A DNA stretch of 64,000 nt from Candidatus Magasanikbacteria bacterium CG10_big_fil_rev_8_21_14_0_10_36_32 (GTDB taxonomy: Bacteria > Patescibacteriota > Patescibacteriia > Magasanikbacterales > GWA2-37-8), in the NCBI GenBank assembly GCA_002778465.1, contig PFBV01000002.1:2312-66311 (forward strand), given 5' to 3'. Made by a program: the position numbers and the translations under genes. Shown here in pieces: positions 14,847 to 62,763 of this stretch. Within the stretch, counting starts at the first letter, position 1. Each line of letters begins with the position of its first letter. Under the pieces are notes generated by a model, which made no database searches, was not told where the DNA came from, and was given only the letters and a program-made list of their open reading frames with translations.

Positions 14847-15123
14847 ACCCCGTTAGAGATATTTATGGTTTATATTTATTTAATGCAGAGCAAGAAAGAT
14901 AATCTTTGGTATACAGGTGCTACTAGAGATTTAAAAAAACGTTTTAAAGAGCATAATGATGGGAAAGTAAAAGCAACAAGGGATAGAAGACCTTTTGTGT
15001 TAATATATTATGAAGCTTGTTTGAATGAACACGATGCTTTTACTCGTGAAAAATATTTAAAGTCAGGAATGGGAAAACGTTATCTTAAAAATCGTTTAAA
15101 ACGTTTTTTATCTCTAACGGGGT
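14847..15123 (+). mobile_element. GIY-YIG ORF cassette bracketed by a perfect 15-bp inverted repeat
   Basis: ACCCCGTTAGAGATA at 14847-14861 and its exact reverse complement TATCTCTAACGGGGT at 15109-15123 enclose the 86-aa ORF. The cassette exactly fills the spacer between the methyltransferase stop and the ComEC-MBL start. Confidence 0.45.
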
Positions 15124-15125
15124 AA
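14865..15125 (+). CDS. Small GIY-YIG nuclease-superfamily protein
   Basis: 86 aa. VYIYLMQS...LWYTGATRDLKKRFKEHNDGK...PFVLIYYE fits the GIY-(x10)-YxG..R..E..N layout. Paralog of the ORF at 47285-47527. Confidence 0.8.
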   Translation: MVYIYLMQSKKDNLWYTGATRDLKKRFKEHNDGKVKATRDRRPFVLIYYEACLNEHDAFTREKYLKSGMGKRYLKNRLKRFLSLTG

Positions 15126-19060: not shown

Positions 19061-20403
19061 TATTTAATATGTTATCTCGCCTTACTAATTATCTTATCCT
19101 CTTATTTTTATTTGCGTTGCCTTTTCAAACCCGTTGGATTATTGAATATGGAATTTTAAATAATCGTCCATGGGAATTTGGGACTATCAGTTTGTATGGT
19201 ACGGAATTTTTTTTATGGCTGATAGTGATTTTGACCGGCATTCGGATTTTTGGCCGACCGGATTTTTGGAAATCATTCTCAAATTGTAGAATCAATGCTG
19301 ATTATTTTAAAATGCACAAAAAAAATATATTGGCTGTTTTGATTTTTTTATTCAGCACGGCTGTTTTTATACGTTCCGGCAATCCGATATCATGGCAATT
19401 TACCACTTGGTTTTTGGGAGGAATATGTTTAATGATTTCAATAGCTGTATCTGAATTATCTTTTTCCCGTGCCGGCATGACATTGTGGTTAAGCGGGGTT
19501 GTGCAAGGAGTATTGGCAGTTCAACAATTTTTTTATCAAAAAATTATTGGTTCAAAATGGTTAGGTATGTCCGCACAAAATTCAAGTGACTCAGGAGTTA
19601 GTGTGGTGCAGTTTGGTGACGAACGCTGGCTGAGAGCCTATGGCAGTTTTGGATGGCCTAATTCTTTGGGAATTTATTTAGCAGTTATCTTTGTTTTGGG
19701 TTTAATTTTATATTTTTATTTTTCTAAAACTAAATGGCGAATATTAATCCTGGTGGGACAATTGATTATTCTAACGGGGTTATTATTGTCTTTTTCCCGC
19801 GGTGCTTGGTTGGCGGCAGTTGGCGGTTTGCTTATTTTTGGGTTGATTGCTTGGAATAATCTGCCTTTTGAATTTACGCGGCGTAAATTTTATAGTCAAT
19901 TTGTAAAACAGTTGGCAGTTTATGCGGTATTAGTAATCAGTCTGGTGACGATTTATTTTCCAGTTTTTACAAATCGGTTTAATACAGGTAATTATTTGGA
20001 ATATTTATCTATAACGGAACGGCAAGATCAATTGAATGTTGCTGGTCAGATGATATCGGACAATTTATTTTTTGGTGTTGGCCCCGGATTGTACACTAAT
20101 TATTTGGCTAGATATTTTGTTTCGCCGACATATGGAGTTTATCAGCCTGTCCATAATATTTTTTTATTAGCACTGGCTGAATTGGGTATATTTGTGTTTT
20201 TATTTATTTTGGTCTTTGTCTTTTGGTTGATTAAAAAAATCGGTCGCGCCGGACCGATTTATTTTTCCGTTTTGACAGTTTTGTTTTTAGCCGGTTTTTA
20301 TGATCATTTTCTTTGGAGTTTATACGCCGGTCAGTTGATTTGGTGGGTGGTTTTGGCTTTAGGATTAATGTTAAAAAAATCGCAATCCAATATTGAAAAA
20401 TAA
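19039..20403 (+). CDS. O-antigen ligase/Wzy-like polytopic membrane protein
   Basis: ~10 TM helices with the LLSFSRGAWLAAVGGLL loop signature of the Wzy_C/O-antigen ligase family. An alternative ATG at 19069 avoids overlap with the upstream gene. Confidence 0.65.
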   Translation: MEKQNKLIFNMLSRLTNYLILLFLFALPFQTRWIIEYGILNNRPWEFGTISLYGTEFFLWLIVILTGIRIFGRPDFWKSFSNCRINADYFKMHKKNILAVLIFLFSTAVFIRSGNPISWQFTTWFLGGICLMISIAVSELSFSRAGMTLWLSGVVQGVLAVQQFFYQKIIGSKWLGMSAQNSSDSGVSVVQFGDERWLRAYGSFGWPNSLGIYLAVIFVLGLILYFYFSKTKWRILILVGQLIILTGLLLSFSRGAWLAAVGGLLIFGLIAWNNLPFEFTRRKFYSQFVKQLAVYAVLVISLVTIYFPVFTNRFNTGNYLEYLSITERQDQLNVAGQMISDNLFFGVGPGLYTNYLARYFVSPTYGVYQPVHNIFLLALAELGIFVFLFILVFVFWLIKKIGRAGPIYFSVLTVLFLAGFYDHFLWSLYAGQLIWWVVLALGLMLKKSQSNIEK

Positions 20404-47104: not shown

Positions 47105-47131
47105 CCAGCTGTTTTTAACAGCTGGCTTTTT
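47105..47131 (+). terminator. Rho-independent terminator
   Basis: CCAGCTG-tttttaa-CAGCTGG followed by CTTTTT. Confidence 0.65.
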
Positions 47132-47160
47132 AAATACCCATTTAAACGGGTATTTAAATA
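47130..47160. repeat. TTAAATACCCATTTAAAcGGGTATTTAAA palindrome (family also at 61888-61917 and 20451-20478)
   Basis: Near-perfect 30-bp palindrome. An almost identical copy (T instead of C at the centre) is at 61888-61917. Confidence 0.8.
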
Positions 47161-47221: not shown

Positions 47222-47273
47222 GGAGAGGTGGCTTCTGAGCTCCTGCCTGCCGGTAGGCAGGGGTCGAAAGCGG
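47222..47273 (+). pseudogene. Duplicated 5' portion (nt 1-29) of tRNA-Ser(GCU), interrupted by 3-nt and 20-nt insertions
   Basis: GGAGAGGTGGCT|tct|GAGCT|CCTGCCTGCCGGTAGGCAGG|GGTCGAAAGCGG compared with the tRNA 5' end GGAGAGGTGGCTGAGCTGGTCGAAAGCGG at 47529-47557. All 29 shared nt are identical. Confidence 0.7.
47242..47261. repeat. 20-bp GC-rich palindrome CCTGCCTGCCGGtAGGCAGG (second copy at 53222-53241)
   Basis: One mismatch from a perfect palindrome. The perfect copy CCTGCCTGCCGGCAGGCAGG is at 53222-53241. GC content contrasts strongly with the background. Confidence 0.8.
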
Positions 47274-47528
47274 TAATAAAATTTATGTATTGCGTGTATT
47301 TTTTACAAAGTCTGAAAGATAAAGGTTTGTACATCGGAAAAACGAATAATATTAAACGTCGGTTATCTGAACACAACGCCGGTAAAGTTCAATCGACAAA
47401 AAGTAGAAAACCTTTTATTTTGTTGGGATTAGAAAAATACCAAACAGAAAAAGAATGTTTGGCGGCAGAATTAGAATGGAAAAAAGGATATAAACGCGAA
47501 CAATTAAAAGTTAGATATAGTCTATAAT
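47274..47528 (+). mobile_element. GIY-YIG cassette lying between the tRNA-Ser 5' duplicate and the intact tRNA-Ser
   Basis: The cassette is bounded by 29-nt direct repeats (the tRNA 5' part). It contains only the 80-aa GIY-YIG ORF, whose stop is 1 nt from tRNA position 1. Confidence 0.45.
47285..47527 (+). CDS. Small GIY-YIG nuclease-superfamily protein (paralog of 14865-15125)
   Basis: MYCVYFLQSLKDKGLYIGKTNNIKRRLSEHNAGKV...KPFILL. The start is taken at ATG 47285 because the longer track ORF (47165) reads through the tRNA fragment and the palindrome. Confidence 0.75.
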   Translation: MYCVYFLQSLKDKGLYIGKTNNIKRRLSEHNAGKVQSTKSRKPFILLGLEKYQTEKECLAAELEWKKGYKREQLKVRYSL

Positions 47529-47624
<96 letters not shown>

Positions 47625-47967: not shown

Positions 47968-48003
47968 AATTTTTTAACCAAGATTTTATTTAACGGGGTA
48001 AAT

Positions 48004-50799: not shown

Positions 50800-52797
50800 A
50801 TGGCCGAAGGTGCAATTAAAAAAATCGCGGAAAAAATACAGCTTATTCCAGCCAGGAAAAATAATTGGAAAACCGTCGTAATAATATTGGCGGTTGTTTT
50901 TGGTTTATTGGCGGTTGTGTTCGGCGTATCAGTCGTTTATTCCAAAACATACGTTGGAAAAGTTTATCCCGGAATTTATCTTGGGCATTATGATTTGTCA
51001 GGTTGGACAGCCGATGATGTAAAAAAGTTTGTTGATAGTTTTAGCCGACGTTTATCTCAGGAAGGATTGGTTTATATGTTTGAGCAAAACGGGCAATCGC
51101 AAAGAGTAGCGGTTAATCCGGCGCTTATTTCCAGCGAAGCGGCCATTGAAACGATTTTTTTAAGCAATAAAGAATTTGCCGGTGAAATTTTAAATATTGG
51201 CAGGGGAGAATCTTTTTGGTTTAAAAAAATGTGGCTGCCGTTGTGGTATAGAATAAAAACGATTCATTTGTCTTTGCCGGTGAAAATTGACCGTCAGAAT
51301 TTTCAAGGGATTATAGAAAACGCGTTAGAGGGATATGTGATTGAACCGCGTGACGCCAATATTCATTTGAGCAGTATTAATCCGTTGGCTTATGAGCTGA
51401 CTTTAGAACAATCAGGTGAAGTTTTTGATTATGAACAAATTATAGATGATACAGTTCAAAAATTATCTGAGCCGTCGCTGGAATCAATCGTTATTTCAAA
51501 ACGGTTGGTTATTCCATCGGTGACAAAAAAAGATTTAGCGGCAGCTGAAGAAAATATTTTAAGGGCGTTTAATTTTGGTCCGGCGATATTATCCCATACC
51601 GATACCGATGCCAAAGAAACTCAAGTTTGGTCGGTTGGTCCGGAATTATTGGTAAAATGGTTAAAACCTGTTTATGATTCCACCGGGAAAATTAAGTTGG
51701 AATTAAAAGAAAAAGAAGTGGGTCAATATTTGGAAAATTTGAGGGTGATTGTTGATCAGCCGGCTGAGGATGCTAAATTTTCAATGGAAAATGGCAAGGT
51801 GAGTGAATTTAAAAATGGTCATTCCGGACGCAGTTTGAATGTGGCTAAAACTTACGGTGAATTAAATAATTTATTTATCAAAATAAGCCAAGGAGAAAAT
51901 GTTGATAAAACAGTTATTAATTTAGCGGTTGACCAAACCGAACCGAAATTGAAATTATCCGATATTAATGATTATGGAATTACCGGAATATTCGGCGTTG
52001 GTACTTCAACTTTTTATGATAGTCATAATAACCGCATTAAAAATATTGCCAACGCAGTTGAACGGTTGAATGGTATAATTATCAAGCCGGGGGAAGAATT
52101 TTCTTCTATTAAATATGCCGGTTCATTTACTGAAGAAAATGGATTTTTACCGGAAGAAATAATCAAAGGCAATAAAATTATTAAAGAAGTCGGAGGAGGA
52201 ATGTGTCAGATTGGCACCACTTTGTTCAGAATGGCCATGAATTCCGGTATGCCGATTACAGAACGAACCAATCATTCTTTGGTGGTTGGTTATTATGCAG
52301 ATCCAATTAATGGAAATCCGGGTACGGACGCTACTTTGTATGAACCAATTTTGGATTTTAAATTTATGAATGATACCGGCGGTTATTTGTTGTTGCAAAC
52401 GGAAATTAATTATAAAAAACAAATGTTGATTTTTACTTTGTGGGGAACACCTGATGGTCGTTCTGGATTTTATAGCCGTCCGATAGTGAGTAAATGGATT
52501 CCAGCCGGTTTGCCGCAAGAAATAAAAACAACCACTTTAAAACCTGGTGAGACAAAATGTCAAAATGCATTTCGTGGCGCGAACGCCAGTTTTACATATA
52601 CTCGGTTTAATCAATCGGGTGAAAAAATTGAACGGGTATTTTCCAGTTATTACCGTCCGTTGCCAAAAATGTGTATGACTGGCATTAGTCCGAATGAATG
52701 CCCTGACGGAAAAACAACTTGTGATATTATTGTTAAAAATACAGCCACCAGTACGCCTTCGGCCACACCGAATTCTCAACCTCTTTTAGCTGACTAG
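50800..52797 (+). CDS. VanW-family protein, membrane anchored
   Basis: N-terminal TM helix. The C-terminal VanW core is GGGMCQIGTTLFRMAMNSGMPITERTNHS..YY. Confidence 0.8.
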   Translation: MAEGAIKKIAEKIQLIPARKNNWKTVVIILAVVFGLLAVVFGVSVVYSKTYVGKVYPGIYLGHYDLSGWTADDVKKFVDSFSRRLSQEGLVYMFEQNGQSQRVAVNPALISSEAAIETIFLSNKEFAGEILNIGRGESFWFKKMWLPLWYRIKTIHLSLPVKIDRQNFQGIIENALEGYVIEPRDANIHLSSINPLAYELTLEQSGEVFDYEQIIDDTVQKLSEPSLESIVISKRLVIPSVTKKDLAAAEENILRAFNFGPAILSHTDTDAKETQVWSVGPELLVKWLKPVYDSTGKIKLELKEKEVGQYLENLRVIVDQPAEDAKFSMENGKVSEFKNGHSGRSLNVAKTYGELNNLFIKISQGENVDKTVINLAVDQTEPKLKLSDINDYGITGIFGVGTSTFYDSHNNRIKNIANAVERLNGIIIKPGEEFSSIKYAGSFTEENGFLPEEIIKGNKIIKEVGGGMCQIGTTLFRMAMNSGMPITERTNHSLVVGYYADPINGNPGTDATLYEPILDFKFMNDTGGYLLLQTEINYKKQMLIFTLWGTPDGRSGFYSRPIVSKWIPAGLPQEIKTTTLKPGETKCQNAFRGANASFTYTRFNQSGEKIERVFSSYYRPLPKMCMTGISPNECPDGKTTCDIIVKNTATSTPSATPNSQPLLAD

Positions 52798-52822
52798 CTG
52801 TGTTGGCAGGATAATTTAAACT

Positions 52823-53061
52823 AAAAAACAAACCACCCCGCATTATTTTGCGGGGTGGTTTAATTGATATTGGGGGAATGAACCCCCTAGAGTTCCGTAT
52901 TCAAGAAGATGTGTCAAAGGTGGAGATAAGCCGTGGCCTATGCAGACCGTTAACACATCCCCATGCTTGTGGTGAATACGGGAAATTGCTCGTTTTTTCT
53001 CGTTAAAAGGGGCAATTTCTCGTATTCTTACAGCATTGGATGTCCGTAGATTTTCAAACAA
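52823..53061 (-). ncRNA. Candidate ~240-nt structured non-coding RNA (class unknown)
   Basis: A minus-strand promoter (TTGACA-N17-TACAAT, 53096-53068) and the terminator at 52861-52823 bracket a region with no ATG-initiated ORF or RBS. It contains a 16-bp stem with one mismatch (GAATACGAGAAATTGC / GCAATTTCCCGTATTC, plus-strand coordinates 52974-53027). A competing GAATACGG segment and a GGGGG-n6-CCCCC hairpin are also present. Confidence 0.35.
52830..52861. terminator. Bidirectional terminator
   Basis: AAACCACCCCGC-attatttt-GCGGGGTGGTTT with A-run and T-run flanks on both sides. Confidence 0.8.
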
Positions 53062-53067
53062 CAAAGT

Positions 53068-53096
53068 ATTGTATCACATCTAAATCATTTTGTCAA
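53068..53096 (-). promoter_or_regulatory. Near-consensus sigma70 promoter with no downstream CDS
   Basis: On the minus strand: TTGACA (53096-53091), 17 nt spacer, TACAAT (53073-53068). Confidence 0.5.
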
Positions 53097-53212
53097 CCCC
53101 GTTAGAAAAGCCAATTGAAAAATTTTAGTAATCTTAGCCTAAAAATTGAATAATACCCTGTGGATAAACCTTTAGAAAAGCATCTTTTCGTGGAATAATT
53201 TTCTAACGGGGT
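53096..53212. repeat. ORF-less element bounded by a perfect 14-bp inverted repeat related to the GIY-YIG cassette IR
   Basis: ACCCCGTTAGAAAA at 53096-53109 and TTTTCTAACGGGGT at 53199-53212. It shares the 11-mer ACCCCGTTAGA with the IR at 14847/15123. The interior is 89 nt and non-coding. Confidence 0.55.
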
Positions 53213-53214
53213 CA

Positions 53215-53290
53215 AGCCCGACCTGCCTGCCGGCAGGCAGGCGTAAAAAAGTCGGGGTCCCGACCCCCCAAAGGGGCGTCGGGAGGGATC
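53215..53290. repeat. GC-rich cluster of nested hairpins including the 20-bp palindrome
   Basis: CCCGAC[CTGCCTGCCGGCAGGCAGG..]GTCGGG, then CCCGAC[CCCC-caaa-GGGG]cGTCGGG. Very GC-rich relative to its surroundings. Confidence 0.6.
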
Positions 53291-53423
53291 AATTTAGTCA
53301 TTTTTTGGTTTAAACTGGGGAAAAATATTATTTTTGGCTAATGTTAGGGTTAAAATCTGTATTATCCGTATTTTGTTTATTAATTCAAGTCAATGTGTTA
53401 ATTTTATTTATTTTTATTTCAGA

Positions 53424-53454
53424 ATAAAACAAAAACCCCGCATTTACGGGGTTT
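53424..53454 (-). terminator. Rho-independent terminator for the 52-aa ORF
   Basis: On the minus strand: AAACCCCG-taaatg-CGGGGTTT followed by TTGTTTT. Confidence 0.7.
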
Positions 53455-53473
53455 GAAGAACAATAAAGGTATT

Positions 53474-53632
53474 TTATTTGCGATTGTGTATGATGTTATA
53501 GAAAAATTCAGCGCTGACTGCGCCAAGGGCTATACCAAACAGAATACCAATCGCGCCCAATGAATTTTTGAATAAGAATCCGATGACTCCTCCGGCCACA
53601 GCTCCAATGAGCATAATTGATTTGTCCAACAT
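53474..53632 (-). CDS. 52-aa glycine-zipper-like hydrophobic micro-protein
   Basis: AGGAG RBS before the ATG at 53632 (the track ORF extends to 53680). Encodes MLDKSIMLIGAVAGGVIGFLFKNSLGAIGILFGIALGAVSAEFFYNIIHNRK. It has its own promoter-like TTGACA-N17-TATCTT and its own terminator. Confidence 0.45.
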   Translation of the reverse strand: MLDKSIMLIGAVAGGVIGFLFKNSLGAIGILFGIALGAVSAEFFYNIIHNRK

Positions 53633-53717
53633 TATTTGTCTCCTTGGTTTTGGTTGCGTATTAAAAAGAACATTGTTCAAAAGATAGCATTTTTATATAG
53701 ATGTGTCAATTATAGAT

Positions 53718-53753
53718 AAAAACAAAAAACCACTCCGTTTACTGAGTGGTTTT
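53718..53753 (-). terminator. Rho-independent terminator after clpP
   Basis: On the minus strand: AAAACCACTC-agtaaacg-GAGTGGTTTT followed by TTGTTTTT. Confidence 0.75.
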
Positions 53754-61887: not shown

Positions 61888-61917
61888 TTTAAATACCCAT
61901 TTAAATGGGTATTTAAA
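61888..61917. repeat. TTTAAATACCCATTTAAATGGGTATTTAAA perfect palindrome
   Basis: Second copy of the 47130-47160 element, flanked by a T-run and an A-run. Confidence 0.8.
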
Positions 61918-61946
61918 AAAATATATAGTTCTTATTTTTTTATTTA

Positions 61947-62736: not shown

Positions 62737-62763
62737 ACCCCGACTTTAAGTCGGGGTTTTTAT
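62737..62763 (+). terminator. Rho-independent terminator
   Basis: ACCCCGAC-tttaa-GTCGGGGT followed by TTTTAT. Confidence 0.7.

Follow-up and report, generated by a model that had tools for sequence, protein, structure and literature searches.

Orphan hairpin repeats in a Magasanikbacteria intergenic gap and their probable GIY-YIG nuclease partners

We analyzed a stretch of 64,000 nucleotides (nt) from Candidatus Magasanikbacteria bacterium CG10_big_fil_rev_8_21_14_0_10_36_32 (contig PFBV01000002.1, positions 2,312 to 66,311; hereafter the window, about 36% G+C), with attention to the hairpin-forming repeats of a noncoding gap at 53091-53290. With a probability of about 0.68, we consider this region to be a small cluster of orphan hairpin repeats, each main repeat being cognate to one of two GIY-YIG nucleases encoded elsewhere in the window and presumably acting in trans. 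One repeat is an element resembling a MITE (a miniature transposable element with inverted repeats), whose arms also bound a cassette encoding an 86-amino-acid (aa) nuclease, GIY1. The other is a solo copy of a 20-bp palindrome, PAL, which accompanies a tRNA-Ser-linked 80-aa nuclease, GIY2. This reading is carried by the membership of both repeats in nuclease-associated families, by covariation of the arms, by direct repeats, by the finding that relatives have the site empty, and by precise 20-bp insertions of PAL. The features concerned are as follows (ORF, open reading frame).

53093-53096: left TCAA, a putative target-site duplication, also part of the minus-strand -35 hexamer TTGACA
53097-53211: ORF-less element of 115 bp, with left arm CCCCGTTAGAAAA (53097-53109), an unrelated 89-nt interior and right arm TTTTCTAACGGGG (53199-53211)
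53212-53215: right TCAA, a putative target-site duplication
53222-53241: PAL, a perfect 20-bp palindrome, CCTGCCTGCCGGCAGGCAGG, as a solo copy nine nt past the right arm
53217-53256: CCCGAC...GTCGGG hairpin around PAL plus GCGTAAAAAA, in which CCCGAC (53217-53222) pairs with GTCGGG (53251-53256)
53259-53283: second hairpin, CCCGAC-CCCCC-AAA-GGGG-C-GTCGGG
53271-53245, minus strand: intrinsic-terminator-like site, GGGGTCGGGACCCC followed by GACTTTTTT, overlapping both CCCGAC hairpins
14847-15123, plus strand: GIY1 cassette, the candidate autonomous partner, with a 15-bp inverted repeat, ACCCCGTTAGAGATA (14847-14861) and TATCTCTAACGGGGT (15109-15123)
14865-15125, plus strand: GIY1 ORF, an 86-aa GIY-YIG protein, between the cassette arms
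47222-47624, plus strand: GIY2 cassette, consisting of a tRNA-Ser 5' fragment with PAL in the D-loop, the ORF and an intact tRNA-Ser
47222-47273: tRNA-Ser 5' fragment, copying the first ~29 nt of tRNA-Ser(GCT), with PAL (47242-47261) and a 3-nt insert
47285-47527, plus strand: GIY2 ORF, an 80-aa GIY-YIG protein
47529-47624, plus strand: intact tRNA-Ser(GCT)

An earlier sequence-only reading of the window had described a 14-bp inverted repeat, a perfect 20-bp palindrome and CCCGAC/GTCGGG hairpins in the gap, and a sequence check found all of them, the inverted repeat being perfect (ACCCCGTTAGAAAA at 53096-53109 and TTTTCTAACGGGGT at 53199-53212, enclosing 89 nt). It had also proposed that shared repeats link this locus to the two GIY-YIG loci, and this holds well: the inverted repeat is the family-specific flank of the 14.8-kb cassette, and PAL is the family-specific partner of the 47.3-kb cassette. 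Its picture of one derivative combining both repeats gives way to two unrelated elements 9 nt apart, and its term MITE-like suits the inverted-repeat part (which shares the arms, holds no ORF, shows a 4-bp target duplication and is missing from the site in relatives), not the locus as a whole. The core motif CCCCGTTAGA occurs in five exact copies in the window, at 14848(+), 15113(-), 19770(-), 53097(+) and 53202(-). With up to one mismatch there are seven copies, against 1.6 expected, and none of 100 shuffles reached seven. The only other PAL in the window, at 47242-47261, has one mismatch (C>T), and chance alone would give none. ORFs of at least 60 aa are absent from 53091-53290, and the 115-bp element contains only mechanical ORFs, none longer than 37 aa.

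The mechanism that we propose runs as follows. The element at 53097-53211 would be a nonautonomous, MITE-like member of a CCCCGTTAGA-bounded family whose full members hold the 86-aa GIY-YIG gene. It would have entered TTTTG-TCAA-G in the -35 box of a candidate small-RNA promoter, duplicating TCAA and leaving the hexamer intact. Nine nt further on lies the solo PAL, otherwise a part of the second cassette type, here inside local GC hairpins that resemble a minus-strand terminator. The resident nucleases would bind or cut the hairpins, probably as single-stranded DNA (ssDNA), so that the repeats spread or are kept in trans, and the window copies would be without host function, except perhaps for insulating the small-RNA promoter from read-through. 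We infer this nuclease action by analogy with pairs of insertion sequences (ISs) and MITEs and with the Ssn nucleases. The latter, single-domain GIY-YIG proteins (CDD cd10448), cut ssDNA beside specific NTS/SRM hairpin repeats, which are found on both sides of the ssn gene and, in addition, in hundreds of solo copies, a layout that the authors likened to an insertion sequence (Chenal et al. 2025, Nat Commun, PMC11893778). The mobility of the elements, in turn, is suggested by the sequence patterns described below.

Inverted-repeat arms and the 86-aa nuclease

Matches to Pfam PF01541 show that both GIY-YIG ORFs of the window are real (E-values, 1e-16 and 4e-18). No other domain family is significant in the 86-aa and 80-aa proteins, the latter giving a subthreshold match to the related T5orf172 model, and among solved structures the UPF0213 proteins 1zg2 (5.5e-8) and 1ywl come nearest. 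NCBIfam gave no family-level match for the window nucleases (TIGR01453 scored 21-24 bits, far under its 56-bit cutoff), and PHROGs and PADLOC gave nothing informative.

A metagenome scan with a GIY-YIG protein alignment recovered 80 loci of GIY1 relatives, whose proteins are 65-77% identical to the 86-aa protein of the window (collected loci are cited here by L numbers). Nearly all of these loci carry CCCCGTTAGAGA at a distance of 3-13 nt upstream of the ATG, and the ORF ends on the complementary TCTCTAACGGGG, which supplies its last codons (...F-L-S-L-T-G-stop). When the 45 nt before the ATG were compared with the gene 3' end, an exact inverted repeat of at least 9 nt was found around the ORF in 76 of the 80 relatives and one of at least 12 nt in 70, and shuffled upstream controls never exceeded 8 nt. 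Besides, the arms covary. Among 41 distinct pairs, the 14-bp stem is 98.3% paired and 6 of its 14 pairs have changed on both sides; compensatory cells number 40, versus 7.1 in shuffles (0 of 500 reach 40), and slid controls pair at only 35-47%. The variants include GAGAT/ATCTC, GAGACAG/CTGTCTC, CCCGAACGAAACAG/CTGTTTCGTACGGG and CCCCGTTAGAAATTT/AAATTTCTAACGGGG, of which the last is nearest to the window repeat.

Some side observations concern these arms. Four loci (L194, L206, L230 and L239) carry an extra right arm directly before the left arm, 20-110 nt upstream of a GIY1-type ATG (e.g., TCTAACGGGGCCCGTTAGAGAC), which looks like the junction of two elements or of a circular form. At L228 1330-1500, a GIY1-type cassette breaks the 3' end of a gene for a four-helix-bundle protein of the 23S rRNA intervening-sequence type, and one recurrent host context, in which ...ccaaagaggcgaatagggttgga meets CCCCG..., is common to many GIY1 cassettes. 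In the window, single right-arm-like motifs without partners were noticed at 47989-47998 and 19770-19779; of these, TTTAACGGGGTAAATATG lies just ahead of a gene start, as at 15113, and CTAACGGGG lies inside a membrane-protein ORF.

The same arms also occur without the gene. We collected 49 nonredundant ORF-less arm pairs of 22-128 bp, 12 of which are flanked by a perfect 4-nt direct repeat such as TTTA, TTCA, TTAA, CAAG or TCAA (permutation mean, 0.97; maximum, 5 in 500). The window copy reads TTTTG-TCAA-CCCCGTTAGAAAA...TTTTCTAACGGGG-TCAA-GCC, and two genomes with a VanW protein 52% identical to that of the window (L191 and L192) read uninterrupted TTTTGTCAAG at the same -35 box. This is the pattern that an insertion with 4-bp target duplication would leave, with the promoter hexamer surviving. 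An ORF-less copy in L228 has flanks near-identical to those of the window, CTTGTCAA on the left and TCAAGC on the right, with a 10-mer in common with the window copy.

The sequence-only reading had offered a structured RNA, a landing site and a decayed copy as further explanations, and the data argue against each. According to the first, the region would be a small RNA, a cis-regulatory leader or a terminator, and the arms would pair the 5' untranslated region with the 3' end of the ORF, masking the ribosome-binding site. In its favor, the left arm of ORF-bearing cassettes ends 3-13 nt before the ATG, at a ribosome-binding-site position, and covaries with the 3' end; mismatched PAL variants near GIY2-type genes are mostly G-T on the sense strand (roughly 5 to 1); and the region folds strongly relative to shuffles (z = -4.3 on the plus strand and -5.4 on the minus strand), although better-than-shuffle folding is expected from any set of palindromes. 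A terminator-like hairpin with a T-run is also present (53271-53245), on the minus strand only (hairpin 53271-53252, then CTTTTTT); this match concerns the CCCGAC hairpins and not the inverted repeat or PAL. Against an RNA, Rfam at gathering thresholds matched only tRNA and 16S rRNA in the window and, at E-values up to 10, gave nothing credible within 52780-53480. G-U occupies only 2 of 533 cells in the 13 inner arm pairs, which fits better with symmetry at the DNA level than with an RNA stem, and conservation covers the arm sequence itself, beyond its pairing. Moreover, the copies stand in unrelated contexts with direct repeats at their flanks, the ORF-less interiors cannot be aligned with each other, and PAL, being palindromic, has no defined strand. 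We regard a structured RNA as an unlikely account of these repeats.

An empty landing site is, in our view, quite improbable. Here the CCCCGTTAGA hairpin would be a host or preexisting target into whose loop the GIY-YIG ORF homes, and the window copy would hold other filler. Short-loop forms of 22-48 bp do exist (L055, L198, L224 and some viral contigs), and the ORF of a full cassette fits exactly into the space between the arms, its last codons being the right arm. However, the 4-nt direct repeats lie outside the arms, even in copies of 28-29 bp (L055, L171 and L180), and therefore the hairpin itself appears to have been inserted and the arms to travel with the element. Relatives also lack the whole element, arms included, at the window site, and the arms covary with the particular nuclease variant.

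It is less probable still that the window element is a decayed GIY-YIG pseudogene cassette, its 89-nt interior being what deletion and drift have left of an ORF. The full cassette has the same arms, and the right arm of the window element can be read in frame as ...NNFLTG, resembling the family C terminus ...FLSLTG or KKFLTG. Nevertheless, the interior aligns to either nuclease gene no better than shuffles do (local alignment score, 19 versus 17.5 +/- 2.5) and contains GIY-YIG residues in no frame. The interiors of other ORF-less copies are mutually unrelated and often consist of GC hairpins, and no intermediate with recognizable ORF fragments was found at the same site in relatives.

PAL and the tRNA-Ser-linked nuclease

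An exact 20-mer search of GTDB species representatives, allowing C or T at position 13, found PAL in at least 120 stretches, to which 47 viral-contig stretches are added (together at least 167), in at least 10 phyla. The hosts belong to several Patescibacteria classes and, among others, to Bacteroidota, Omnitrophota, Planctomycetota, Gamma- and Deltaproteobacteria, Bdellovibrionales, Nitrospirae, Chloroflexi and Ignavibacteria, and among them are the cultured isolates Winogradskyella echinorum, Olivibacter oleidegradans and Flagellimonas yonaguniensis. About 95% of ~190 copies are solo (~180 in the collected loci), and their flanks are not conserved; the 9-mers enriched around PAL were either AT-rich or derived from PAL itself, except for a weak one derived from SRM. 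Canonical Ssn SRM repeats lie near PAL in some loci (L042, L085, L100 and L105), and the density of PAL in GIY1-family loci is ~1 per 39 kb.

PAL is tied to small GIY-YIG genes: 7 of the ~190 copies lie 20-70 nt upstream of the start of one, against ~0.05 expected. In an all-against-all BLAST of PAL-adjacent ORFs, only small GIY-YIG proteins (5 loci) and a ParB-like phage protein (6 loci) recur, and no transposase family recurs among the ORFs near the repeats. Starting from the nuclease gives the same association, PAL being present in 15 of 15 informative GIY2 homologs, or 16 of 16 when the window cassette is counted. In all six sampled GIY2 contigs, a tRNA-Ser fragment with PAL in its D-loop is followed by the ORF and an intact tRNA-Ser, with anticodons GGA, GCT and TGA. 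Loci on the PAL side in different phyla have one layout, in which the 5' part A of a tRNA, PAL, part B and the ORF precede an intact tRNA consisting of A, B and C. Where gene calls of GIY2 homologs run upstream, all nine translate PAL (LPAGRQ, SCLPAGRG or SPACRQAG), several with codons of the tRNA-Ser 5' end before it (GEVAE, EEWLS and ERWLS). A viral scan for GIY2-type genes gave three loci, and L044 is an ORF-less version of the tRNA/PAL architecture.

The PAL-bearing tRNA fragment and the adjacent intact tRNA can be compared as filled and empty paralogs. In all seven such comparisons, the insert is exactly 20 bp, without target duplication. PAL is depleted in long open frames, which hold 53% of the copies versus 91% of the bases, and its flanks are enriched relative to same-locus controls in short direct repeats (14.8% versus 3.9%; p = 5e-7) and in inverted repeats (9.1% versus 2.4%).

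Several individual copies deserve mention. PAL often lies within tandem arrays of degenerate 7-9-nt units or has longer direct repeats on both sides (14 nt in L130), as in L020, L029, L050, L071, L080, L090, L102, L122 and L130, and its arms are sometimes tandemly duplicated (L026, L032, L040 and L059). Multiple insertion-like copies occur at L280 424-483, with three PALs head to tail in one tRNA-Ser fragment, and at L275 244-380, with three PAL-like inserts in one tRNA downstream of a GIY-YIG gene. On two viral contigs (L123 8616 and L151 2284), a phage tRNA-Met gene that is otherwise complete has PAL in its variable loop and is called by ARAGORN after PAL removal; judging from these sequences, the phage tRNA may tolerate PAL as an extra arm. 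At L021 4020-4225, a complete tRNA-Met gene apparently divides a tRNA that has PAL in its D-loop; the break falls after the anticodon region, with the 3' half beyond. The tRNA-Lys downstream of a PAL-linked GIY-YIG gene at L274 820-960 (this contig is also L162) is broken after the anticodon stem by an unrelated GC-rich sequence, which may be an intron. Finally, at L089 3861-4145, PAL (translated as PACRQAG) and a GIY-YIG domain are in frame within a 714-aa ORF of two repeated halves that looks like a type I restriction specificity subunit.

The sequence-only reading had named, as what would speak against it, generic extragenic palindromes without a tie to GIY-YIG genes; both motifs proved widespread yet strongly tied to such genes. 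That the repeats are mere terminator hairpins and chance palindromes is the least probable explanation and is refuted for the inverted repeat and PAL, for although the CCCCGAC/GTCGGGG stems also make an ordinary terminator at 62737-62757 (ACCCCGAC/GTCGGGGT), some viral-contig CCCCGTTAGA hairpins resemble terminators and PAL is sometimes found in the loop of a terminator or with an A run on one side and a T run on the other (L055 and L110), the exact 20-mer in so many stretches and phyla is not chance, and the nuclease genes are accompanied by PAL and by the arms in the proportions given above. This explanation may hold only for the two CCCGAC hairpins, for which a 10-mer search of the other loci gave noise only.

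The surrounding gap and a candidate small RNA

The neighborhood of the repeats contains the following features.

50800-52797: VanW-family gene, whose product matches a protein of Candidatus Magasanikbacteria bacterium CG10_big_fil_rev at 100% identity, bordering the gap on one side, with a terminator at 52830-52861
53680-53474, minus strand: gene for a 68-aa glycine-zipper-like (glycine-zipper/DUF456-like) protein, bordering the gap on the other side, with a terminator at 53454-53433
53096-53068, minus strand: site resembling a promoter, TTGACA-17-TACAAT, extended by TG (11 of 12 matches), facing the small RNA and directly abutting the left arm at its -35 box
53061-52826, minus strand: candidate conserved structured small RNA of ~235 nt, ending in the terminator shared with the VanW gene; context, and not part of the repeats

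The stretch at 53061-52826 folds with z = -7.6 relative to shuffles and is conserved far above the neighboring protein in L190 (VanW 75% identical) and in L191 and L192 (52%), its core being near-identical in L190 despite only 75% VanW identity. Compensatory pairs and a UNCG-type loop are seen across four genomes, and the promoter is conserved in L191 and L192. No Rfam family matched this RNA. From these sequence features, it is a candidate unannotated small RNA with its own promoter and terminator.

Beyond the 68-aa gene lie genes for ClpP, a DHH protein and SMC. L191 and L192 keep the synteny HSP20-VanW-gap-ClpP-DHH-SMC, and their gap is only ~340 nt and contains the terminators and the small RNA, nothing else; therefore, 53097-53725 is extra DNA in the window genome. 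This block comprises the repeats, an AT-rich spacer and the 68-aa gene, and the 68-aa gene (53474-53680, minus strand) and the spacer (53290-53433) are accordingly absent from the syntenic gap of L191 and L192. Elsewhere in the window, a 32-nt palindromic sequence, TTTTTAAATACCCATTTAAACGGGTATTTAAA, occurs at 47127-47158 and 61888-61919 (copies 97% complementary); one copy precedes the GIY2 cassette by ~65 nt. The sequence may be a shared terminator or one more dispersed hairpin repeat.

Weight of the evidence and comparison with known systems

Several points weigh against nuclease-linked, mobile hairpin repeats. ORF-bearing cassettes are without clear target duplication (4 of 70, versus 1.0 expected and a permutation maximum of 4). 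The nearest genome with a readable site is only 52% identical in VanW, the contig of the 75% relative (L190) stopping before the site, and no mobility event was observed. The window itself holds one ORF-less copy and two PAL copies, as window-only counts, and the position of PAL beside the inverted-repeat element may be a coincidence. Judged from the alignments, arm covariation would suit base pairing and matched protein-binding ends equally and is no proof of a hairpin. To our knowledge, the GIY-YIG domain alone does not serve as a transposase in any system. The SRM motif HGTCWYN(0-2)YYVSBRHN(0-5)WNVSBRGN(0-2)RNCYNB of the Ssn system has no match in the 64-kb window, nor in 194 kb of the 80 GIY1-family loci. 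Besides, we rejected the idea, which came from cases in tRNA D-loops, anticodon loops and variable loops and in one terminator loop, that PAL targets hairpin loops as a general rule: with PAL deleted and the flanks folded as DNA, loops accounted for 18.2% of insertion points versus 15.6% of control positions (p = 0.43).

A bolder proposal, which we hold only tentatively and consider somewhat doubtful, is that small single-domain GIY-YIG nucleases mobilize prokaryotic hairpin elements of a class not yet described: CCCCGTTAGA cassettes, along with their ORF-less miniatures, would be moved by one subfamily with 4-bp duplications, and another would ride tRNA-Ser and disperse the autonomous-looking PAL in trans. 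If this is true, PAL, near-unchanged across at least 10 bacterial phyla and their phages, would rank with the smallest mobile sequences known and with the most widely shared. It is unusual for Patescibacteria, Bacteroidota, Planctomycetota, Omnitrophota, Proteobacteria and viral contigs to have an exact 20-mer in common in their noncoding DNA, and such sharing would need frequent horizontal spread or a very strict recognition requirement. Literature searches on the palindrome sequence, on GIY-YIG with tRNA or palindrome, and on GIY-YIG with inverted repeats in bacteria of the candidate phyla radiation found neither repeat described.

The 2025 work on Ssn established that tiny GIY-YIG proteins recognize specific hairpin repeats as ssDNA. 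The present locus adds two nuclease-repeat pairs with defined sequences, namely the CCCCGTTAGA arms with the 86-aa enzyme and PAL with the 80-aa tRNA-Ser-linked enzyme, together with sequence evidence of insertion-like behavior in both (4-bp direct repeats and an empty site for the arms; seven precise 20-bp filled/empty pairs for PAL). These pairs are candidate new specificities for ssDNA tools. In addition, PAL insertions can break or pad tRNA gene calls.

Among known systems, GC-rich palindromes of fungal mitochondria (yeast GC clusters and Neurospora PstI palindromes) are short, scattered in AT-rich DNA, often located beside tRNA genes and suspected to be mobile. The repeats described here are alike in this, whereas the fungal palindromes are organelle- and lineage-specific and have no fixed nuclease partner. 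Free-standing GIY-YIG homing endonucleases of tRNA regions, such as T4 SegB (PMC2330249), also have a gene beside tRNA genes, and selfish inheritance of the neighborhood is plausible for both, but Seg and Tev enzymes have ~200-250 aa with a linker and a DNA-binding domain, as opposed to 80-86 aa here.

Repetitive extragenic palindromic (REP) sequences, their bacterial interspersed mosaic elements and the REP-associated tyrosine transposases (RAYTs; IS200/IS605-like Y1) compare in several respects: short GC-rich extragenic palindromes form intergenic mosaics, copies of the repeat stand on either side of a single-copy gene for the nuclease, and action on ssDNA hairpins is presumed. Nevertheless, our repeats have no GTAG or CGTC tag, PAL starting with CCTG and being a perfect palindrome; the partner is a GIY-YIG and not an HUH protein; and, unlike the species-specific REPs, PAL has one and the same sequence in at least 10 phyla. 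We know of no Seg gene accompanied by a partial tRNA duplication with a fixed palindrome.

The inverted-repeat part shares several traits with MITEs and ISs: terminal inverted repeats are common to ORF-bearing (14847-15123; 76 of 80 relatives) and ORF-less copies; the latter are small (115 bp in the window; 22-128 bp in the family) and hold no credible ORF; and short direct repeats flank them, with an empty site in L191 and L192, the window copy lying in a promoter region. On the other hand, the parent ORF encodes only a GIY-YIG nuclease domain and not a DDE, HUH or serine/tyrosine transposase, ORF-bearing copies are without clear target duplication, and the arms are conserved, with covariation, across many metagenomes.

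The closest known system is Ssn with its NTS/SRM repeats. It differs in its SRM motif, as noted above, and in that GIY1 sits inside one split hairpin whose right arm encodes the C terminus, instead of between two flanking hairpins; in that GIY2 is tied to a tRNA-Ser gene whose 5' part is duplicated, an arrangement with no counterpart described for Ssn; and in the nearest solved structures of the window proteins, which are UPF0213. The likeness lies in a nuclease of ~80-95 aa consisting only of the GIY-YIG domain (86 and 80 aa in the window, placed by PF01541), in a gene physically tied to a specific short hairpin-forming repeat, possibly in the occurrence of the cognate repeat as many solo intergenic copies (49 ORF-less arm pairs and ~180 solo PALs across the collected loci; one of each in the window), and in the pairing of different nuclease subfamilies with different cognate repeats.

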